Source: a virus
UHGV virus genome: UHGV-0120097
Strand: one strand, 5' to 3'
DNA length: 37,664 bases
In this document: positions 3,986-33,766 of the stretch, piece by piece
Numbering within the stretch: position 1 is the stretch's first letter
Layout of the letters: each line of letters opens with the position of its first letter
Notes under the pieces: generated by a model
Databases searched by the model: none
Told to the model about the DNA's origin: nothing
The model's input: the letters and a program-made list of their open reading frames with translations, nothing else
Translations under genes and position numbers: made by a program

Positions 3986-4225
3986 TAAAAATGAAAGCAC
4001 TGAATAGAAAGAAGAAACCAAAACATCATAGTAAAGTAAAATATAAGGTTTATCCTAAAAGAAAAGGAATAGTAAGTATAACTAGAGAGTGCAGATGTAA
4101 AAAATTTAAAAATTGTTATCTTGTACCAAAACAATTTTTTCTAATTATTTTAACTACTAATAGGAAATCTAAAAAATATAAAAAAGTATCAAAACAAACC
4201 TATAAAAAAAAGTATTAAAAGTACA

Positions 4226-4254
4226 TTGTTTTTTATCTCTAAAAATAGTATAAT
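4226..4254 (+). promoter_or_regulatory. sigma70-like promoter for the recombinase gene (TTGTTT-17-TATAAT)
   Basis: -35 TTGTTT at 4226-4231, a 17-nt spacer, then -10 TATAAT at 4249-4254. Confidence 0.4.
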
Positions 4255-4308
4255 TATGGTATTAAGTGAAACGAACGACAGAATAAATACTAAAAGGAGA
4301 GATAAAAG

Positions 4309-5004
4309 ATGATATATGGTTATTGCAGAGTATCTACAAAAAAACAAAATATTTTAAGACAGGTGGAAAATATCATAAAGATATATCAAACTGCTAAAGT
4401 ATTTCAAGAATCATATACAGGAACTACAACAGATAGAAAAGAATGGAGTAAGCTAAAAAAAATAGTTAAACCTGGAGATACAATTATATTTGATTCTGTT
4501 AGTAGAATGAGTAGAAATGCAGAAGAGGGAATAAAAGAATATTTTAATTTTGTAGAAAGAGATATTGAACTTATATTTTTAAAAGAGGGATATATTAACA
4601 CAGCCCTTTATAAAAAAGCTTTAGAGAATAAAATAGATTCAACAGGAAATAAAATAGCTGATATATACATAGATGCAACCAATGAAGTATTAAAGATATT
4701 AGCTCAAGAACAAATTAAAATAGCATTTGACCAAGCTGAAAAGGAAGTATTAGACCTTAGAGAAAGAACAAAAGAGGGACTAAGAGTTACCAAAGCTAAA
4801 GGAACTGTATTAGGTAGAAAACAAGGAGATACTTATACTACCAAGAAAGAAAAGGAGATGAGAGAGAAAATAAAAAAACTAGCTAAAGATTTTGGAGGAA
4901 ATCTTAAAGATATAGAAGTCTTTACACTGCTAGGAATAACTAAGAATACATATTACAAGTATAAGAAAAATATTATACTAGAGGAGGCACAAAATGAGAA
5001 ATAA
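4309..5004 (+). CDS. small serine recombinase (resolvase/invertase family)
   Basis: N-terminal MIYGYCRVSTKKQ (the YxRVSTxxQ catalytic Ser motif), DSVSRMSRN, and a C-terminal HTH-like segment. Confidence 0.75.
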   Translation: MIYGYCRVSTKKQNILRQVENIIKIYQTAKVFQESYTGTTTDRKEWSKLKKIVKPGDTIIFDSVSRMSRNAEEGIKEYFNFVERDIELIFLKEGYINTALYKKALENKIDSTGNKIADIYIDATNEVLKILAQEQIKIAFDQAEKEVLDLRERTKEGLRVTKAKGTVLGRKQGDTYTTKKEKEMREKIKKLAKDFGGNLKDIEVFTLLGITKNTYYKYKKNIILEEAQNEK

Positions 5005-8027: not shown

Positions 8028-10138
8028 TGGCAGGAACACTAATACAACCTTTAAAAATAAATAGACCAAGTGGTAGAGCAGTACCACAATTAAATATAGC
8101 TGCAGATTTTGGAGTAGAGAGAAATGCAGCTACTAAAATAGAGGAACTTTTCCAGAAAAAACAAAAGCAAGACTTAATACAAGCAGAAACATTCGGGCAG
8201 CAATTTGCTGCCTCTATGTCTAAAATGATATTAGATAGAGATAACCAGGGAAAAATAAATAAAAAATTATTCCATAATTTTGATTCTTATAACTCTTTAG
8301 AAAGTGAAATAAAAGCTAATATAGAGCAATTTAAAAAAGATGGAAAGGAATTAGGAATAGATGATTCTATATTAGAAAAATATAGTTCTATGGTAACAGG
8401 AGAGCTTGAAAAATCAAATGTAAATTATTTAGTTGAATATAATGACTATAATGAGAAAATTCAAAAAGATGAAGCTACTAGAATTATAAGAATGAAAGGA
8501 GATAATCTTTCATCAGTTGCTATGCTTGGAGATTATCAAGGAGCAGTACAAGGTTTTTATAACGTAGCTCAAGATTTAGATAGAGCAATAGAAGCAGGAT
8601 ATATAGATGGTACAAAAGCTATTGAACTTGCTAGCAAGCAAAGACAAGATATTATAGTAAGTTATGTATCATCTTTTGTAAATCAACCAAATGGTAAATC
8701 AGTTCTTGAAAATATGTCTACTTGGAATACTTCTCAATTTATGGAAAAGTTTTCAGAACTTAACTTTAAAAATGATACAGGAGAATTTTATTTGACAGTA
8801 GATGACTATAACAAATTTCAATCTACTATAACAAGTGGACTTACAAGAATAAATAATAAAGAAAAATTAAATAATCAAAACACTATGGTTGAGAGATTAA
8901 AATATGAACAAAAGAAAAAAACAAATCCTTTGGAATTATCTTTAAAAGAAGACCAAGTAGCAGCAGATGGATATATACCAGAGAGTACAATGGTAAAAGC
9001 TATAAACTATAAAAATGGGGTAACTGTAACAGGAGTAAATGAAGCTATAAATTTAGGATATAGTATTCCTTGGAAAGAAAAAGGTTTAAATGATACCACA
9101 GAAGTATATAAAAATCCTAATTTAGCTGGGGAAGGGGTAATGAATTTTAGGCAACAAGAAGCTGAATTGATGGCTAATGGTTATGGATATGAAGCAGTAA
9201 AAAACTTCTATGATACCACAGATGAGAATATAATAGGTGGAAGTATGCTTATGGAAACATACCAGATGAATACTACCTTTAAAGATGAATTTGACAAAGT
9301 ATATAGTTCTGATAATAGAAAAATACTTGCTAATTTTGATAAAGTTCAAGTGACTGATTTTTCTACCTTAAAAGAATATAATACAGAATTTCAAGGAGTA
9401 GATGACCCATATTATGCTACTCCTACAAGCTTTATGTCTGGCCAGGTTAGTAGAAAACCACAAAAGACAATGTCAATAGCTGCAGGTGGTAAAATAGCAG
9501 GACTACAAGCTGCAGCTAATAATGGAAGTTTAGCAGCTACAAGAGCAACTAAAGATATAACTCAAATAGCAACTGACACACTAATATTAGAGTTGTATTC
9601 TAAATATGGTGGTGTAATAACAGATGATTTAGCTGATAAAGGAGGACTAAAAGAAAAATATGTAGGTCAACCTATAGCTAGTTTAACCCCAGAGCAACAA
9701 AGGACTTTCCTTAAAGGAGTTTTAGAAAATGATAAATCAATAAGAGAAACTGTAAATTCCAGGGTAGAAAATGTAGTTAATGCTATAACAGAGGGGCTAG
9801 ATACTATTAATCTAGGTAATAATAGAGTTATATTTGCACCTAAAATAATAAAAGAAGAGGAGAGAACTAACTTTATAACAGGTCAAATAGATAGAGGTTT
9901 CGTTGTTAAAGAAAGAGATATAGAAAAAACTCAAAAAGCTATAAATGAAATGATAGCTAAAAATACATATAAAGTTAATTACAATGGAACTATTAAAGAA
10001 ATAGGAGATAAGAAAAATATAACTTTTGTACAAGACATAGGAAGTACAAAGATAAGACTTTTCTATGGTGGGCAACCTGTATTTACTGATAATGGATATG
10101 CAGTATTTGATGTAGAAGAGTTTATTAAGGAGGAATAA
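8027..10138 (+). CDS. putative internal virion/ejection protein B (703 aa)
   Basis: ATGG overlap with the upstream stop; placed by synteny. Confidence 0.45.
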   Translation: MAGTLIQPLKINRPSGRAVPQLNIAADFGVERNAATKIEELFQKKQKQDLIQAETFGQQFAASMSKMILDRDNQGKINKKLFHNFDSYNSLESEIKANIEQFKKDGKELGIDDSILEKYSSMVTGELEKSNVNYLVEYNDYNEKIQKDEATRIIRMKGDNLSSVAMLGDYQGAVQGFYNVAQDLDRAIEAGYIDGTKAIELASKQRQDIIVSYVSSFVNQPNGKSVLENMSTWNTSQFMEKFSELNFKNDTGEFYLTVDDYNKFQSTITSGLTRINNKEKLNNQNTMVERLKYEQKKKTNPLELSLKEDQVAADGYIPESTMVKAINYKNGVTVTGVNEAINLGYSIPWKEKGLNDTTEVYKNPNLAGEGVMNFRQQEAELMANGYGYEAVKNFYDTTDENIIGGSMLMETYQMNTTFKDEFDKVYSSDNRKILANFDKVQVTDFSTLKEYNTEFQGVDDPYYATPTSFMSGQVSRKPQKTMSIAAGGKIAGLQAAANNGSLAATRATKDITQIATDTLILELYSKYGGVITDDLADKGGLKEKYVGQPIASLTPEQQRTFLKGVLENDKSIRETVNSRVENVVNAITEGLDTINLGNNRVIFAPKIIKEEERTNFITGQIDRGFVVKERDIEKTQKAINEMIAKNTYKVNYNGTIKEIGDKKNITFVQDIGSTKIRLFYGGQPVFTDNGYAVFDVEEFIKEE

Positions 10139-20728: not shown

Positions 20729-21124
20729 ATGAGTAATCTAAATACTAGGATTGCTACATTAGAGGGCAAAGCTGCAACTACTCCAATAACTATGAAAGGA
20801 TTAGCTGATAGATTAGCTCAGGTGGAAGCTACTGCTAAAGATTGGGCTGTAGTTACACTAACAGGCACACAAACATCCCGATGGGCTATCCCTACGCAAT
20901 ATTTAAATGGATATAATTTTTATGTTGTTGGTTGGAGCGGGTTAAAAATGGGATCTTATTATGAACAAGAATATAGTAATAATAGAATAAACCATTATGT
21001 TACGAACGATGGGAGATATCGTTTTATCTATAAATTTGAAAGAAATGGTAATTATATACTATCTGTTAAAGAACAAAGTTCAAATCCTGTAATTGATAAT
21101 ATTACAGTAATGTTTTATAAATAA
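20729..21124 (+). CDS. small fibre-associated protein, paralog B (131 aa); no SD
   Basis: N-terminal module shared with the 19512 gene, with 43 nt identical. There is no recognisable RBS upstream of the ATG. Confidence 0.45.
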   Translation: MSNLNTRIATLEGKAATTPITMKGLADRLAQVEATAKDWAVVTLTGTQTSRWAIPTQYLNGYNFYVVGWSGLKMGSYYEQEYSNNRINHYVTNDGRYRFIYKFERNGNYILSVKEQSSNPVIDNITVMFYK

Positions 21125-22287: not shown

Positions 22288-22331
22288 AATGTGAGCTTAT
22301 GAGCCTTAGAATAGGGTAGGTCAAAACAAAA

Positions 22332-22360
22332 AGAGAGGTAAATATATACCTCTCTTTTTT
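22332..22360. terminator. bidirectional rho-independent terminator between convergent operons
   Basis: AGAGAGGTA-aatata-TACCTCTCT, flanked by an A-run on one side and a T-run on the other. Confidence 0.65.
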
Positions 22361-22388: not shown

Positions 22389-22646
22389 CTATTTTAATTT
22401 TAAATCAACCTTAAAATCAATTAAGTCAAAATAAAATATTTTATCTGTACTGTAATAACTTTCTGTATTTGCTTGGAACTCATCTAATTTTAAAGTAATA
22501 TCTCCAACAATAATTTTATATCCATCTTGTATGTCTATAATATCTAAAACTTCTACATCATTTTTAAAATATGTTATCAACCCATTTGTTATAGTTATAC
22601 TTTGAATATTTTCTCTATTTCCTTTTAATAAATCCTTTAATTTCAT
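22389..22646 (-). CDS. hypothetical protein
   Basis: 85-aa ORF, last gene of the minus-strand operon. Confidence 0.4.
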   Translation of the reverse strand: MKLKDLLKGNRENIQSITITNGLITYFKNDVEVLDIIDIQDGYKIIVGDITLKLDEFQANTESYYSTDKIFYFDLIDFKVDLKLK

Positions 22647-23311
22647 TAGCTCAACCCCTTTATCTTTTCTTTTAGTTCAGCCTTAACAGTTTTCAACTCT
22701 TTCAACTCTTCCTCTAATTTTCTGATTTTCGCCTCTACCTCCGATAGTCTGGATACCAGCTTATCTTTTTCAGATTCCTCTACTATCTCGGCATCTTCTA
22801 TTTCGAGCATGCTCGAAATAGCTTTCCTTATTTCTTTATCTGTTCTTATTCCAGAAGATAAAATATTCTCAAGTATTCTTACATTAACCTTTTTATTCAC
22901 TAAAGCTTTTACTTCTCTGTCTGAAAAATCTGAAATTAAATTGTTGTATTGTGGATAGCTTAAAGATAACTTATATCTCCCTCTAAGTAGTGATACTTGG
23001 TCTTTATTAAATCCTAAAGCTTGGTACCACTCCATATATGAACTTGGATTTTCAGAGTATCTATCAAATAGTTTTCTTGCCTCTTCCAAGTTTTGACCTA
23101 TTTGTAGTGCTAAAGAAGAGATATTTTCTTTTTTAGTGATAATACTTTTCTCAAATATAATTAATTGATTTTTATCATCATCTGAAAAATTTTCCAATTT
23201 GTTATAATCATATTTCAATATATCTTCTATATCATTTTTTTCTGGAATAATTACTTCTGTATTTTCTTTCTTTTTTAAAATTATAGGTTTTCTATTTATT
23301 TTTATTGCCAT
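22646..23311 (-). CDS. putative partition protein (ParB/centromere-binding partner of ParA)
   Basis: Lies immediately downstream of ParA and overlaps it by 10 nt. Charged coiled-coil C-terminus. No clear ParB box seen. Confidence 0.4.
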   Translation of the reverse strand: MAIKINRKPIILKKKENTEVIIPEKNDIEDILKYDYNKLENFSDDDKNQLIIFEKSIITKKENISSLALQIGQNLEEARKLFDRYSENPSSYMEWYQALGFNKDQVSLLRGRYKLSLSYPQYNNLISDFSDREVKALVNKKVNVRILENILSSGIRTDKEIRKAISSMLEIEDAEIVEESEKDKLVSRLSEVEAKIRKLEEELKELKTVKAELKEKIKGLS

Positions 23312-24060
23312 TTATTTAACAACTCCTTTGTAAGAGCTTTAAAATCCTTAGCCCCATTTGATGTAGAACTATATTCTATTATAAAATGTCCTGTCTGTGA
23401 GGCTTTAAATATTTTAAGATTATCTCTTATAGGAGTATCTAATATGTTATCAAAAGAATTTCTGACATCTTCAGTGGCTTCTAATATCTCTTTGTCATTT
23501 TGTAGCCTATTGATATAACCAAAATGAATGAATGGAGTGTTTAAATCCTTTTTAAGAGCTTGTATAAAGTTCTCTAATAATTCAAATCCTCTAAAACTAA
23601 ATAGATGAGCTTCAACAGGAGTGATAACATAATTACTGCACTTTAACACAGCCCTTTCTATTGCTCTCATATCTGGTCTACAATCTATAATTATATAGTC
23701 ATATTCTTGAAGTTGCTCTAGTCCCTTTTTTAAATCTAGGTAAATCATTTCCATATCAACACTGTCTTTTTTATATTCCAAGTCCTTTAAATTAAGACTT
23801 GCAGGTATTAAATCTAATATATGTTTTCCATCTCTTTCAATAGGAATTATATTTCCTTTTAAATCTTTCTCTTTTATAGCTCTAAAGATATTTTTTTCTT
23901 GGTCTGCTTCTATTAAACTTTCAGTTAGATTTTGTTGAAAGTCACAATCAATAAGCAAAACTTTTTTATTATGAACTAGAGATAGTACCCCAGCAACTTC
24001 TCTGGCACCAGTAGTCTTACCAGTGCCACCTTTTTCTGTTATGAATGATATTATTTTCAT
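23302..24060 (-). CDS. parA: ParA/Soj-family partition ATPase
   Basis: Deviant Walker A KGGTGKTT at the N-terminus (MKIISFITEKGGTGKTT). SD ataggggggtaaaATG. Confidence 0.8.
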   Translation of the reverse strand: MKIISFITEKGGTGKTTGAREVAGVLSLVHNKKVLLIDCDFQQNLTESLIEADQEKNIFRAIKEKDLKGNIIPIERDGKHILDLIPASLNLKDLEYKKDSVDMEMIYLDLKKGLEQLQEYDYIIIDCRPDMRAIERAVLKCSNYVITPVEAHLFSFRGFELLENFIQALKKDLNTPFIHFGYINRLQNDKEILEATEDVRNSFDNILDTPIRDNLKIFKASQTGHFIIEYSSTSNGAKDFKALTKELLNKWQ

Positions 24061-24069
24061 TTTACCCCC

Positions 24070-25194
24070 CTATATTAAATCCTTATATTTTTTTATATAC
24101 TCTCTTACTTCCTCTGGTTCATAACCAAAATCCTCTCCAGTAGCTTGATATATTTTCATAGCATTTTGATATTCTTCATTAGTTAGTGGAGTTGTTTTTT
24201 TCTTGACTACTGGCTCTTCAACTTCTTTTATTTTTTCTGCTTCCTTAGTTCTTCTTATAACTATTTTTCTTTTAGGTTTATTGATATTGTCCTCTATGAC
24301 TTTTACTAGGTAATTAAGACTTGTAAATTCTGTTTTAATTAAATCATAAGCAGCTTTCAATCCTTTTTCTAATTGTTCTTGGCTAAATTTATCTAAAAGT
24401 TTTATTATATTATCATCAGTCAAGAAAGGTTTTACAAATCTATTTTTCTCTGCTTTCTCAATAGCTGATAATAGCTCTTCTGAAATCTCTATTTCCTCTT
24501 CCTCTTCTATTGTTTCATCAACCTTGTTATCTTTCCAAGTAAACTCAAACCCACTTATAAATTTACCATCTTTTATTTTTTTTACTTTCAAACCTTCAAA
24601 ATATTGTGGTAACTCTTTCATAATAGGAGGCAATACTCTTTTGTTTATAACTGCTGTATCATAGCTTTCTGGAACTCCTAATTCTCTTCTGAAATCTTCA
24701 AGAGTTATAGTTACTTTTTTTATTTTATTCCACTTTTTCAAAATAGAATACATTAGTTGTGAATATCCAGATTTTAAATTAGAATATTCTATCAAAGCTT
24801 GAATTGTATAAGGAGCTTGTAAATGATTTAGCAAATATTTATAGTCTGGATTTATTCTTATTCTAACTGTTTTCTCTTTCTCATCTACTGAAAAGGTTGG
24901 AAACAAGACCATATTTGTAAATCCTTCATCTTTTCTTATTTGCATAACTTGTAATCTTAAAAGCTTATCACTTAATTCTTTTAAAAAGCTATAAATATTA
25001 TCTCCTTTTTTTCTTGCAGAATAATTTGCAATTTTTGAAATCTCTGAAACTTTAAAAGTTACAACTTCATCTTCCTGTTCCATAATCTTTAAACAAAGAG
25101 CTAAAAAAACTGCTCTTTCTTTTACTGAATAATTTTGTAATTGGAGATTATGGAAATCTTTATGATGTATTAGATTATATTTTTCTTGACTCAT
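24070..25194 (-). CDS. rep: Rep_3-family plasmid replication initiator
   Basis: Segments TIQALIEYSNLKSGYSQLMYSILKKW and ITLEDFRRELGVPESYDTAVINKRVLPPIMKEL match the Rep_3 initiator signature. An iteron array lies immediately upstream. Confidence 0.7.
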   Translation of the reverse strand: MSQEKYNLIHHKDFHNLQLQNYSVKERAVFLALCLKIMEQEDEVVTFKVSEISKIANYSARKKGDNIYSFLKELSDKLLRLQVMQIRKDEGFTNMVLFPTFSVDEKEKTVRIRINPDYKYLLNHLQAPYTIQALIEYSNLKSGYSQLMYSILKKWNKIKKVTITLEDFRRELGVPESYDTAVINKRVLPPIMKELPQYFEGLKVKKIKDGKFISGFEFTWKDNKVDETIEEEEEIEISEELLSAIEKAEKNRFVKPFLTDDNIIKLLDKFSQEQLEKGLKAAYDLIKTEFTSLNYLVKVIEDNINKPKRKIVIRRTKEAEKIKEVEEPVVKKKTTPLTNEEYQNAMKIYQATGEDFGYEPEEVREYIKKYKDLI

Positions 25195-25260
25195 ATATTC
25201 CCTCCAAAAATTTCACTAATTTTAGTATAACTTAATCAAAGGTACAATGTCAATATATAT

Positions 25261-25530
25261 GTACCTTTATTTTCTGGATTTTGTACCTTTATCTTTTTAA
25301 AATACTCTTTAAATCCTATTTACACTAGGTTTTTAACTATTATATAAATTTATAATAAAGGTACATCATTCTAATAAATGTCGTTAAAAGCACATTATAA
25401 AATATTTCGTACCTTTATAATTGGATTTTGTACCTCTATAATTGGATTTTGTACCTTTGAAAGTTGGATTTTGTACCTTTGTTTTCTGGATTTTGTACCT
25501 TTGAAAGTTGGATTTTGTACCTTTATCTTT
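25261..25530. repeat. iteron array (GGATTTTGTACCT, about 22-bp period, at least 5 tandem copies plus 2 more)
   Basis: Tandem copies start at 25423, 25443, 25465, 25487 and 25509. Additional copies lie at 25276 and partials near 25261 and 25408. Confidence 0.75.
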
Positions 25531-25844
25531 TTATAAAATGGCTTTTTTTCTAGCTTTTAAAGGTGCCGAAATATATAAAAGAATAAAAGAATAAAGATTC
25601 TTCTTAAAGGAGTGAGAAAGAATATATTTTTAAAATAAAAATAACTGACAAAACTTCACACTATAAAAACCAATAAAAATAAATACTCAAAAATTACTTT
25701 GACAAAATTTCACAGTATTATAATTTCTAAAAATATATTGACTTATATCAAAAAGTATATTATCCTCCTGTATCCAAATTTTTAACCCCATATAAGATGC
25801 TTTTTTTTAACATCATATGTTATTCGAGATTCTTTAATAAAAGT

Positions 25845-25873
25845 GGCAGGAATAAACCTGCCATTTTTATTTT
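25845..25873. terminator. bidirectional hairpin terminator
   Basis: GGCAGG-aataaa-CCTGCC followed by ATTTTTATTTT on the plus strand. Read in the minus direction the hairpin is followed by CUUUUAUU, directly downstream of the stop of the 25872 gene. Confidence 0.5.
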
Positions 25874-26495: not shown

Positions 26496-26513
26496 AAGAC
26501 CACCTCCATTTAA

Positions 26514-26557
26514 TTTTTAACAAGTCCCCCAAGTTCCTTGGGGAACCTATAAAAACT
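26514..26557 (-). repeat. 44-bp conserved element, copy A (7-3-7 palindrome CCCCAAG-TTC-CTTGGGG)
   Basis: Identical to copy C. Sits directly upstream of the RBS of the 26495 gene. Confidence 0.7.
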
Positions 26558-26560
26558 AAA

Positions 26561-27210: not shown

Positions 27211-27230
27211 AAAGACCACCTCCAATTTAA

Positions 27231-27274
27231 TTTTTAATAAGTACCCCAAGGCTCTTGGGGAACCTATAAAAACT
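27231..27274 (-). repeat. 44-bp conserved element, copy B (CCCCAAG-GCT-CTTGGGG)
   Basis: Stem conserved and loop changed. Homology extends through the RBS and the first codons of the downstream gene (about 80 bp shared with copy A). Confidence 0.7.
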
Positions 27275-27277
27275 AAA

Positions 27278-28046: not shown

Positions 28047-28057
28047 CCCCCCTTTAA

Positions 28058-28101
28058 GTTTTTAACAAGTCCCCCAAGTTCCTTGGGGAACCTATAAAAA
28101 C
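28058..28101 (-). repeat. 44-bp conserved element, copy C
   Basis: Upstream of the RBS of the 28046 micro-ORF. Confidence 0.7.
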
Positions 28102-28105
28102 TTAA

Positions 28106-28447: not shown

Positions 28448-28607
28448 CTCTTTGAAGTCCTCTTCGTTTCCACCATGGTCTGGGTGTAATCTCTTACATA
28501 ATTCTCTATATTGTTTTTTAAATCCTCGTTACTGTTAAAGTATTTATACATATTACCAACTCCTTATATTTTCTACTTGCTTTTATGTTTTTTGTGGTTT
28601 ATAATGC

Positions 28608-28668
28608 AAGTAAATAACTTGTATATTTGACTATATAATACAAGTAATTTACTTGCTTGTCAAGTAAA
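28608..28668. promoter_or_regulatory. operator cluster of the lysogeny switch (half-site CAAGTAA/TTACTTG)
   Basis: CAAGTAAATAACTTG at 28608-28622 and CAAGTAATTTACTTG at 28641-28655, plus a half-site TGTCAAGTAAA overlapping the -35 of the CI promoter. Confidence 0.5.
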
Positions 28669-28685
28669 AATTTTTATTTTATAAT
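28657..28685 (+). promoter_or_regulatory. CI promoter (TTGTCA-17-TATAAT)
   Basis: TTGTCA at 28657-28662, a 17-nt spacer, TATAAT at 28680-28685. Confidence 0.5.
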
Positions 28686-28734
28686 AAAATTACAAGTTAA
28701 TTAGTTGCAAAACTAGAAAGGACAAGGTTTTTAT

Positions 28735-29391
28735 ATGGAAAAAAAGACAGGAGAAACTTTAAAAAATATTAGAAAAAAATATAACATTACAGGAGAAAAG
28801 ATGGCAGAAATTTTAGGGTGTAGCACTCAATTTATTTATGCAATAGAAAAAAATAAAAATAAATTTCCTGTAAAAAAATTAGAATTGATAAAAAATATTG
28901 TATCTGAAATCGATTATTTCGATTTAATAGAAGCAATAAAATTTGATACTGAACCTGCAAGCCTTAAAAACGAAGTTTTAAAAATCCAAAGTATAGAAGA
29001 GATAAAACAAAAGAAGATACCTTTTTATCCAGATATTGAAGCTTCAGCAGGGTATGGAAGATTTAATGATAGTGAAATTGTAGAGTTCTTAGAAGTTCCA
29101 GAAGATTTAGCAAGACCAGGAAATATAGCTATAAGAGTTGCTGGAGATTCTATGGAACCAGAGATTAAAGACGGAGATACTATTGTAATAGATACAAATT
29201 GTATAGAATGTATTTTAAATAAAATAATAGTTGTTAATTATCAAGGGGCAGTATATTTAAAAAAATATGTTGAAGAAAATGGAAAAATATTTTTAAAAAG
29301 TATAAATCCATATTACCCTAAAATTAGAATAGGAAACAGAGAAGAACTTAGAGTTATTGGGAAGTTAAAAAGTGTTATGAGGTATTATTAG
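28735..29391 (+). CDS. CI-like repressor (XRE HTH + S24 LexA-like peptidase domain)
   Basis: N-terminal LKNIRKKYNITGEKMAEILGCSTQFIYAIE HTH. C-terminal AGDSMEP (Ser nucleophile) with a downstream Lys. Transcribed divergently from the early operon. Confidence 0.85.
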   Translation: MEKKTGETLKNIRKKYNITGEKMAEILGCSTQFIYAIEKNKNKFPVKKLELIKNIVSEIDYFDLIEAIKFDTEPASLKNEVLKIQSIEEIKQKKIPFYPDIEASAGYGRFNDSEIVEFLEVPEDLARPGNIAIRVAGDSMEPEIKDGDTIVIDTNCIECILNKIIVVNYQGAVYLKKYVEENGKIFLKSINPYYPKIRIGNREELRVIGKLKSVMRYY

Positions 29392-30003: not shown

Positions 30004-30022
30004 AAATGTAAAATACTTACCA

Positions 30023-30050
30023 AGAGGAGAAATTTTTTCTCCTCTTTTTT
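30023..30050 (+). terminator. rho-independent terminator
   Basis: AGAGGAGA-aatttt-TCTCCTCT followed by TTTTTT. Confidence 0.7.
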
Positions 30051-30094
30051 ATTGCTTGAAACTTAGTAAAAATAGTACTTCACAAATACAACTA

Positions 30095-30180
30095 AATTAA
30101 TTGTACAACTTATTTACTTTTTTAATCTTGACAAAACAATTAATTTAGTTGTATTTTATATTATATAAAATATTGTGAGG
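30095..30180 (+). promoter_or_regulatory. promoter with inverted-repeat operators for the Cro-like gene
   Basis: ACAACTAAATTA ... TTGACA ... TAATTTAGTTGT inverted 12-mers flank a TTGACA -35. An AT-rich -10 region (tattatataaaat) follows. Confidence 0.45.
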
Positions 30181-30189
30181 TAAAATTTT

Positions 30190-30405
30190 ATGGATATAAA
30201 TATAAGAATAGCAGAAAATATAAAAAAAAGAATAAATAAGAAGTACAAAACAACTAAAGAAGCTAGTATTGCTGGAGGTTGGGGAGAAAAATATTTAACT
30301 AATATGATAAGCGACTTAAAGAATAAAAATAATTTTCCTAGTATTCCCCAACTTATAAAAATAGCTAATCTTTGTAATTGTGATATAAAAGAATTTTTCA
30401 AATAA
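30190..30405 (+). CDS. Cro/XRE-family HTH regulator
   Basis: 71 aa. TKEASIAGGWGEKYLTNMIS reads as an HTH. First gene of the rightward transcript. Confidence 0.55.
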   Translation: MDINIRIAENIKKRINKKYKTTKEASIAGGWGEKYLTNMISDLKNKNNFPSIPQLIKIANLCNCDIKEFFK

Positions 30406-33175: not shown

Positions 33176-33766
33176 ATGGAAGATAGAATTAAAAATCTAT
33201 TTCGTAGTAGATTCCAGGAGGCACAACAGGAAAGAAATGTAATACTAGCTTGGTATTTGAAAGCTAGAGCACATTTTCTACCAAGAGAAATTAATTTAAA
33301 TGGTGTAGACAGTACAGGACTAGCATATGCTACTAAGTTAGCTAACAAGTTATCAGCTATGATACTTAATAGTAATCATATCTGGGCTTGGATAGAAACA
33401 CCAAGGTTTGAAGATATATCAAGAGATGACAAGATTATCTTTAGACGCATAACAGAAATAGTATTTGATGAGATTCAAGAAAATTCTAACTTTGAAACAG
33501 AGAAAGCTGTAATTCTTATGGACTACCTAATAGGAACGGCAGTTTTTAAAGTTAGATTTACTGGTAAAATTGCAAATCCCGTGGAATTTCAACCAGTACC
33601 CAATATAAATGTTTATCTTACTAAAAGAAGAGGTAAAGAACCTGGAGATGTATTCTACAATGCAGGCAAAGTGAGAAAACATCAGATTCTTAATCTTTTT
33701 GGAGAAAAGGCTTATAACTCTGAAAAAGTTCAAAGAATGTCGCAAGATGACGAGATAGAGTTGTGA
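33176..33766 (+). CDS. portal protein, N-terminal part (ends at an in-frame TGA)
   Basis: Strong SD. The position (TerS ... portal-scaffold-MCP) and the combined size (about 502 codons) fit a portal. A TGA at 33764-33766 interrupts the frame. Confidence 0.5.
   Translation: MEDRIKNLFRSRFQEAQQERNVILAWYLKARAHFLPREINLNGVDSTGLAYATKLANKLSAMILNSNHIWAWIETPRFEDISRDDKIIFRRITEIVFDEIQENSNFETEKAVILMDYLIGTAVFKVRFTGKIANPVEFQPVPNINVYLTKRRGKEPGDVFYNAGKVRKHQILNLFGEKAYNSEKVQRMSQDDEIEL

Follow-up and report, generated by a model that had tools for sequence, protein, structure and literature searches.

The window analysed here, UHGV virus genome UHGV-0120097, is a stretch of 37,664 bp (37.7 kb) which, judged from its sequence, is the complete circular genome of an uncultured temperate podovirus-like phage. 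Between its early genes and its lysis genes lies a plasmid-type replication and partition module, composed of iterons, a Rep_3 initiator, a ParA ATPase and an overlapping partner protein, which an earlier note made from the letters alone had read as the sign of a likely phage-plasmid. The module and its borders can be listed as follows, in the direction of rep transcription.

25844-25863, minus strand: terminator hairpin just after the Sak gene (-17.1 kcal/mol, z -5.5, then UUUUAUU).
25562-25610, no strand assigned: A+T-rich block adjoining the iterons, with the palindrome AAGAAT-AAAG-ATTCTT at 25587-25602.
25402-25522, plus strand: iteron array, with GGATTTTGTACCT in five exact copies and a degenerate one, uniformly oriented at 21-22-bp spacing.
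25276-25288, plus strand: solitary iteron (exact copy), 82-94 bp before the rep ATG, the sole promoter-proximal copy.
25224-25268, minus strand: rep promoter with operator, -35 TTGACA at 25253-25248 and -10 TATACT at 25229-24.
24070-25194, minus strand: Rep_3-family replication initiator (Rep), 374 amino acids (aa), with WH1 and WH2 domains and a conserved C-terminal extension.
23302-24060, minus strand: ParA partition ATPase, 252 aa, with a deviant Walker A motif, without an N-terminal helix-turn-helix (HTH) and of type Ib size.
22646-23311, minus strand: ParA partner, 221 aa, overlapping parA by 10 nucleotides (nt).
22389-22646, minus strand: 85-aa open reading frame (ORF), orf85, whose start overlaps the partner stop; last gene of the rep-par unit.
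22327-22359, no single strand: hairpin with a U-run on either strand, a bidirectional terminator separating the rep-par unit from the holin gene.

Rep is matched by both Pfam domains of the Rep_3 family, Rep3_N (4e-18, 66.6 bits for a cutoff of 22.4) and Rep3_C (3.6e-11, 43.6 bits for a cutoff of 21.1), each above its gathering score, which confirms the type of initiator proposed in the earlier note. The conserved C-terminal extension of about 150 aa matches no known family. The nearest plasmid Reps are those of Cetobacterium and Fusobacterium, with 35-48% identity.

The iteron core GGATTTTGTACCT has six exact matches in the window, all on the plus strand (25276, 25423, 25444, 25466, 25488, and 25510). 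With up to two mismatches, eight matches are found for 1.36 expected, a number reached by none of 100 shuffled sequences. Tandem Repeats Finder delimits an array at 25404-25526 with a period of 22 and 5.6 copies; the degenerate copy ATATTTCGTACCT occupies 25402-25414 and the five exact tandem iterons span 25423-25522. The earlier claim of at least five tandem iterons of about 22 bp is thereby borne out, and so is their position upstream of rep, but not directly upstream of it, the array being 209-333 bp from the rep ATG. These repeats are proposed to be the Rep-monomer binding sites of the origin.

Origins of the same build can be found in relatives whose Rep is 65-100% identical, where the same core is repeated three to five times upstream of Rep and the order is kept: A+T-rich block, three to five iterons, a spacer of about 140 bp, a solitary iteron near -93, and a promoter with inverted half-iterons on both sides of its -35. 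The solitary iteron stands at the same position (-93/-94) in the related loci L003, L005, L014, L017, L040, and L041. Contigs with an identical Rep vary in their number of tandem iterons, from three to five, and several contigs break inside the array. Regarding the A+T-rich block, it is the only non-iteron intergenic stretch conserved in an alignment of five divergent module carriers, and L013 has a symmetric variant of its palindrome, AAGAATAT-CTTT-ATATTCTT. The block is proposed to be the DNA-unwinding region, and could also be a protein-binding site. No DnaA box (TTATCCACA) was matched within one mismatch in 25195-25871, nor is the box enriched in the window; DnaA boxes are present in many, not all, Rep_3 iteron-type replicons.

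The predicted rep promoter, TTGACA-18-TATACT, agrees with the consensus at 11 of 12 positions. Two inverted half-iterons, AAAGGTACA (25238-46), which sits in the spacer between -35 and -10, and TGTACCTTT (25260-68), flank the -35, and are proposed to be the site of autorepression by Rep. A variant class of iterons, found in L013, L038, and L039 (Rep about 75% identical), bears on this proposal. Iterons of this class (ACTACAAAATCCA) read AACTACAAAATCCA as against AGGTACAAAATCCA in the class of the window, i.e., ACTACA vs. GGTACA, and the half-site in the promoter spacer shifts in step from TGTACC to TGTAGT (TGTAGTT) in the same three loci. As both sites change together, one protein presumably reads iterons and promoter half-site alike, and the linked change is the strongest sequence-level sign of it. 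In the general Rep_3 scheme, monomers act on iterons and dimers on the operator, with which the covariation agrees. Remnants of the other class can also be seen: L012 has ACTACA-type repeats and an inverted TGTAGT half-site upstream of its origin (9500-9590), and L013 has GGTACA-type repeats at the corresponding place (9620-9700), which suggests past recombination between the two replicon types.

ParA is matched by AAA_31 (3e-35) and CbiA (2e-12) in Pfam and by the PHROG "ParA-like partition protein" (2e-47), and carries the deviant Walker A motif KGGTGKT at residues 10-16, so that the Walker-A ParA announced after rep was correctly named. Its match to NCBIfam ParA_partition (1.6e-21) is under the equivalog cutoff. 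In the partner, residues 1-28 are basic and disordered, about 44-170 form a helical core with an HTH, and 181-220 a C-terminal coiled coil; the protein is proposed to be a centromere-binding adaptor. It matches no Pfam family, and its comparison with the PDB gave coiled-coil noise only. Since PF02195, the N-terminal, CTP-binding domain of ParB (ParB/Srx), is absent from the partner and from 40 diverse members of its family, the protein stands outside the canonical ParB family. The earlier description of an overlapping, ParB-like partner holds for the overlap, and for ParB only at the level of the fold, the canonical ParB domain being absent. The partner family is small but genuine: an indexed search gathered 51 proteins, and an exhaustive one 246 cluster representatives (E ≤ 0.001). 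A Pfam scan of 41 diverse members returned three weak matches to UPF0137 (best E 2.8e-4), the family of the chlamydial plasmid protein Pgp6, encoded beside a ParA-like gene, and thus a possible lead to distant relatives. Neither Pfam nor PHROG has a family match for orf85. All podovirus-type relatives have it; in the other backbones, the partner is not followed by it.

A centromere (parS) was looked for and not found, although several sequences were considered. The palindrome at 25587-25602 is a candidate only. Two 39-nt direct repeats (25646-25684 and 25700-25738), located between the Sak terminator and the A+T-rich block, each hold an imperfect palindrome, TGACAAAAYTTCACA; L003, L005, and L012 have such repeats too, but none was seen in the origin regions of L013, L014, and L017, for which reason they were rejected. 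The GC-rich palindrome CCCCAAG-N3-CTTGGGG, in three copies, was rejected as it is confined to the podovirus-type early operon, within a 50-nt hairpin before ribosome-binding sites (RBSs). Among the 11-mers shared by all module carriers, none apart from the iteron resembles a binding site.

With regards to transcription, the unit rep-parA-partner-orf85 has its own promoter and ends at the bidirectional terminator facing the holin gene (-23.1 kcal/mol and z -5.6 on the minus strand, -20.1 kcal/mol and z -4.1 on the plus strand). On its other side, the hairpin at 25844-25863, the sequence of which is conserved in L005 and L013, parts the origin and the rep promoter from an early operon controlled by a CI-type repressor. 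The elements of this control are the following.

28735-29391, plus strand: CI-type repressor, with an HTH and an S24 self-cleaving peptidase, GDSMEP motif.
28605-28709, no strand assigned: genetic switch, three 17-19-bp palindromic operators RCAAGT-N5-ACTTGY among back-to-back promoters.

The repressor is matched by Pfam Peptidase_S24 (2.8e-24) and by HTH_19 and HTH_3, and its gene forms with a 200-aa membrane ORF (orf200) a short unit ending at a strong hairpin (30022-30046). The operators lie at 28606-24, 28638-56, and about 28689-707, interleaved with a leftward early promoter (-35 at 28663, -10 at 28635) and a rightward cI promoter (-35 at 28657, -10 at 28685). The leftward early operon encodes a J-domain protein, small ORFs, Gp157, and Sak, and ends at the hairpin 25863-25844. 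Relatives carry alternative immunity genes at the cI location. The CI switch described in the earlier note is thus present, and an S24 repressor with three operators marks a temperate phage.

The same note had placed the rep-par genes on the side, by strand and operon, expected to be expressed in a lysogen, and had called them divergent from the structural genes. This is wrong: they are convergent with the lysis and structural genes, opposite to cI (plus strand), and co-directional with the early genes (Sak, Gp157). The unit can nevertheless be expected to run during lysogeny, because it has its own sigma-70-like promoter (25253-25224) and terminators on both sides; it is the promoter and the upstream terminator, not the strand, which would allow it.

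Both ends of the window lie inside ORFs which, once joined, give one 149-aa protein with a Phage_gp49_66 domain crossing the junction. An artificial junction of 1200 bp (the last 600 and the first 600 bp) aligns unbroken at 99-99.5% in six independent metagenome contigs. The window therefore closes on itself, which answers the question of circularity raised with the earlier note. Its coordinates are those of ENA contig NODE_562_length_37719, which is 55 bp longer, as would fit a terminal assembly overlap that was trimmed. The genome has a GC content of 30% and all phage core functions, namely packaging, virion structure, lysis, and lysogeny control. The terminase large subunit (TerL) is about 26% identical to podophage terminases, and a T7-type portal, a holin, a lysozyme, tail proteins, and collagen-like fibres with an S74 chaperone domain are encoded, as well as the early recombination proteins Sak and Gp157 and SSB-like and MazG-like proteins. 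No helicase, primase, polymerase, or second initiator was found among the ORFs of the genome. Phage-plasmids have been defined operationally by the presence of phage core functions together with plasmid replication and partition genes, an integrase not being needed and a dimer recombinase being possible (PMC7969092). By this definition, the element is a phage-plasmid in its gene content.

Two changes in the window raise the question of whether this particular copy is a defective phage-plasmid, unable to make virions. In comparison with near-identical relatives, the portal gene has TGA for TGG at 33764-33766, which splits the 503-aa T7-type portal into 196 and 295 aa, and a 1-nt deletion in an A-run at about 28520 cuts the first early gene, which encodes the J-domain protein (HPD motif), from 148 to 113 aa. 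Taken as they read, both changes are likely to be inactivating. However, the coverage of the source contig is only about 5.9x, at which each of them could be an assembly error, and most relatives have intact genes, so that a defective copy seems unlikely overall, with an appreciable chance left to it.

One further gene of the window concerns the lifestyle of the element.

4309-5004, plus strand: small serine recombinase, 231 aa, resolvase/invertase type (Pfam Resolvase 4e-20, PHROG DNA invertase 1.2e-35).

As the earlier note had stated, this enzyme is the only site-specific recombinase found and there is no tyrosine integrase: no ORF of the window matches PF00589 or a large serine recombinase, nor any integrase, transposase, or protelomerase family. 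The recombinase is proposed to be a multimer (dimer) resolvase. Orthologues with 60-63% identity accompany the Rep-ParA-partner set on other backbones, and because the recombinase travels with the replicon, a role in maintenance, presumably by dimer resolution, is supported. The repeat AAAGTATYAAAA occurs twice upstream of its gene, both in the window (4183-4220) and on a different backbone (L014:15160-15210), and makes 4183-4308 a candidate res region, in which the recombinase may bind. An invertible segment under its control was considered and rejected, as no credible flanking inverted repeats were found.

It could be argued instead that the phage is an ordinary integrating one, its genome being inserted by this 231-aa enzyme or by an unrecognised protein and its plasmid-type genes being accessory. 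The recombinase does have a weaker match to a PHROG "integrase" (7.6e-11), relatives do carry PF00589 recombinases, and some elements alternate between integrated and plasmid states (PMC7969092). Yet the size of the enzyme is that of resolvases and invertases and its best match is to DNA invertases. The PF00589 genes of the relatives lie inside tail-fibre segments of varying orientation, which suggests an inversion switch. Nor do the contigs speak for host chromosome, att duplications, or an integrase around the element: no host-flanked contig was found, and none of the 84-169 blocks has one beyond 50 kb. The inspected contig of 44.9 kb (L002) continues into DNA of a related phage (95-100% identical to L045), not into host DNA. 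Integration is therefore considered highly improbable. The serine integrases so far known are large.

The PF00589 recombinases of the relatives deserve a word of their own. In myovirus-type relatives, at about 15.5-19.5 kb of L041, L042, L044, and L045 and at 14100-19200 of L002, the gene of a tyrosine recombinase of this kind is enclosed by Gp10_C tail-fibre ORFs. The block so formed varies in orientation and order from contig to contig, and BLAST shows internal inverted matches. These enzymes look like those of a tail-fibre (host-range) inversion switch rather than integrases.

The reading preferred here is that of a temperate podovirus-like phage, probably of Fusobacteriaceae, whose prophage does not integrate and replicates and segregates as a low-copy plasmid, an account which is held with good, if not full, confidence. 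The extrachromosomal state, for which the earlier note had suggested a P1- or N15-like lifestyle, is one that we infer from the assemblies: the circle, the missing integrase, and the lack of host flanks support it. Contigs carrying the exact Rep measure 36.9-37.8 kb with differing breakpoints, and 34 of 84 blocks have a longest contig of 20-50 kb, none exceeding 50 kb. The exact ParA is found on 161 contigs from human gut metagenomes (longest 49.4 kb), and a 102-aa marker gene, neighbour of the junction-spanning ORF, in 169 blocks, again with no contig above 50 kb. Such data fit a non-integrating element and, taken alone, do not separate a plasmid prophage from virion or replicative DNA.

Several observations weigh against a plasmid prophage, and most of them would suit an ordinary phage in which Rep_3 and its iterons are a lytic origin only, the phage being virulent or in an unstable carrier state. 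Circularly permuted virion DNA, or replicative DNA, would also assemble as genome-length circles. The rep-par genes follow the early recombination genes in the same direction and Rep_3 is the sole initiator, as could be expected of a lytic origin like that of lambda O. Two scans of isolate and species-representative genomes did not find the element as a lysogen, only plasmid Reps of up to 48% identity, mostly from Cetobacterium/Fusobacteriaceae. To these should be added that the inspection of oversized contigs for host flanks covered one of them, that of 44.9 kb, and that no repeated palindrome travels with the module, in the window and its carriers, as a centromere might. On the other side, the S24 CI with its three operators and the heteroimmune variants indicate lysogeny; a ParA-partner pair, with homologues on a true plasmid, would serve no evident purpose if the cycle were purely lytic; and the rep-par unit has a promoter of its own, insulated by terminators. 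Furthermore, myovirus-type relatives keep a separate early initiator besides the cassette, and a copy apparently with a nonsense codon in its portal gene was still assembled as a complete circle. What tips the balance to a plasmid prophage is the switch with its repressor, together with the partition pair and the insulation of the rep promoter; a lytic origin alone is judged improbable.

The plasmid prophage would function as follows. Monomers of Rep would bind the five 22-bp iterons beside the A+T-rich block and open the origin for the replisome of the host; the phage itself has no helicase, primase, or polymerase. Dimers of Rep would bind the inverted half-iterons in the rep promoter and limit the transcription of rep-parA-partner-orf85, a unit which would be active in lysogeny, walled off by terminators on either side, towards the CI-repressed early operon and towards the lysis genes. 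Segregation of the copies would fall to ParA and its partner with HTH and coiled coil, and the resolution of dimers to the small serine recombinase. CI would keep the early operon off via its three operators until its RecA-stimulated self-cleavage starts the lytic programme, with lytic replication proceeding from the same origin with Sak, Gp157, and SSB. Of this scheme, the domain identities, the repeats, the closure of the circle, the lack of integrase hits, the conservation, and the covariation are observed; we infer the binding events, a centromere, the control of copy number, the resolution of dimers, and the existence as a plasmid.

The P1 prophage combines RepA and oriR iterons, ParA-ParB-parS, Cre-lox, and C1. 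The element resembles it in its functional layout, with an initiator presumably controlled by iterons, a Walker-type ParA followed by a putative DNA-binding partner, a site-specific recombinase which may act on dimers, and a lytic programme under a repressor. In contrast to P1, the initiator is a Pfam Rep_3 protein, ParA is without the N-terminal HTH of type Ia, the partner is without the N-terminal domain of ParB, the recombinase is a serine and not a tyrosine enzyme, the repressor is an S24 protein like lambda CI, one replicon is found instead of separate plasmid and lytic origins, and the phage is podovirus-like with 37.7 kb and not 94 kb. Unlike N15, no ORF matches a protelomerase family and the genome assembles as a circle. 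With lambda O and the iterons of ori-lambda, it shares an initiator which binds, or here would bind, direct repeats and an early operon divergent from a CI-type repressor, whereas its repeats lie upstream of a gene with its own promoter and an insulating terminator, the initiator is of a plasmid family, a partition pair follows it, and there is no integrase. Rep_3 iteron plasmids (pSC101, R6K, RepE of F, pPS10, and those of Cetobacterium and Fusobacterium) have the same WH1-WH2 initiator, iterons at 21-22-bp spacing, an adjacent A+T-rich stretch, and inverted half-iterons in the rep promoter, but here the replicon is found inside a complete phage genome, without a DnaA box near the origin and with a Rep extension of about 150 aa. 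As a class, phage-plasmids (P1, N15, SSU5, and the groups in PMC7969092) are likewise temperate phages with replication and partition genes of their own, no integrase, a recombinase available for dimer resolution, and cassettes shared between different backbones; what differs is that the present element has no DNA-level similarity to a cultured phage or a PLSDB plasmid and is known from metagenomes only.

The cassette can be found outside this phage. Rep homologues with 65-74% identity lie in different gene neighbourhoods, on a myovirus-like backbone of 41-49 kb (Baseplate_J, sheath initiator, Rad52, and a separate RepA_N initiator) and on an element of 50-71 kb. The only proteins of the window recurring on these other backbones are Rep (68-74%), ParA (50-55%), the partner (44-52%), and the serine recombinase, with the exception of L014, where the holin and an adjacent 83-aa lysis ORF recur as well. 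The RepA_N gene of the myovirus-type relatives is located in the early operon; because these relatives hold a separate early initiator, a maintenance role of Rep_3 fits. Within their RepA_N gene (L041, 1537-2601), three copies of the palindrome GGTCGAAA(A/G)T(G/T)TCGACC lie at 1995-2073, which suggests a second, internal origin and thus two replicons in such elements. L002 (ENA scaffold_753, 44,920 bp) matches the window with 98-100% identity in its head, early, and replicon parts, which are of the podovirus type, and switches near the holin gene to a myovirus-type tail-fibre region; true recombination or chimeric scaffolding of the metagenome would account for it.

A more distant relative of the partition pair is carried by plasmid p6 of Cetobacterium somerae (NZ_CP143325.1, L055), which comes from a cultured host and is without phage genes. 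In p6, which lends the pair independent support, a ParA with 30% identity precedes and overlaps a homologue of the partner (38% identity, E 1e-36), and the order of iterons, large gene in the position of the initiator, ParA, and overlapping partner is alike. The large gene differs: it encodes a 587-aa protein with no Pfam family, which is not a Rep_3 homologue and which may be an uncharacterised iteron-type initiator, as presumed from its position ahead of the ParA-partner pair. About five direct repeats (CTCTCCTCATTAGTGAGGGGTAT) lie upstream of it (20830-21090).

It can be hypothesized from these associations that four proteins (Rep_3, ParA, the partner, and the serine recombinase) make up a "plasmid-lifestyle kit" which is portable and has moved between unrelated phage backbones of gut Fusobacteriaceae and made each of them a phage-plasmid, that its iteron classes, at least two in number, correspond to incompatibility types, and that the partner founds a new family of ParA adaptors with a KorB/SopB-like HTH and without the CTP-binding domain. 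This proposal is a tentative one, for which the chances fall a little short of even.

Regarding the host, the GC content, the nearest Reps, and the occurrence of partner homologues in Fusobacteriaceae together point to this family as the probable host, and to no particular species. A partner homologue with 50% identity is filed under Fusobacterium mortiferum in UniRef, in addition to the one on the C. somerae plasmid. A megablast search of cultured phages and of PLSDB plasmids, with the module and its surroundings (12 kb) as query, gave no match, nor did a tblastn search with the capsid protein against 50,697 phage records. The proteins of the genome are already in GenBank as "MAG TPA ... Caudoviricetes sp." (DAU80121, DAU80124, DAU80126), with generic annotation only.

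Phage-plasmids are well documented in Enterobacteria, Bacillota, and Actinobacteria, and more recently among crAss-like phages. No description of the element was found in literature combining phage-plasmids and Fusobacterium, and Fusobacteria are not mentioned in PMC7969092, PMC11652158, or the tyPPing preprint, which deal with phage-plasmids. The lifestyle as such is thus already known; of value are the clade and how common it is, a cassette that is portable, iterons of two classes, and a ParA partner that belongs to no classified family. The element is common in human gut metagenomes, and genetic work is difficult in gut Fusobacterium and Cetobacterium, its likely hosts, for which the replicon of about 3 kb (origin, rep, parA, and partner) could seed shuttle vectors. 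Related cassettes on several backbones offer a natural test set for the conversion of phages to a non-integrating life by plasmid modules, and both the specificity of the initiator and incompatibility can be approached directly through the two iteron classes and their matching half-sites.

Two further observations were made outside the module. In the intergenic gaps of the early operon, three extended hairpins of about 50 nt are found on the minus strand (26510-26560, 27227-27277, and 28055-28105), each ending about 15-20 nt before an RBS and built on the GC-rich core already mentioned; the copy at 26510-26560 has -24.7 kcal/mol and z -4.8. Stems are conserved and loops vary in all podovirus-type relatives, and the hairpins are absent from other backbones. 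A search of the window against Rfam gave no family, for these hairpins or otherwise. They may be an element of RNA processing or stability. Further to the right, where the rightward late region begins, the arms of a perfect 21-nt inverted repeat (AAATACAACTAAATTAATTGT / ACAATTAATTTAGTTGTATTT) at 30084-30156 enclose a promoter-like site, closely followed by an HTH gene of 71 aa (30190-30405). Repeat and gene may constitute a second regulatory switch; relatives have different small HTH genes at the position of this gene.

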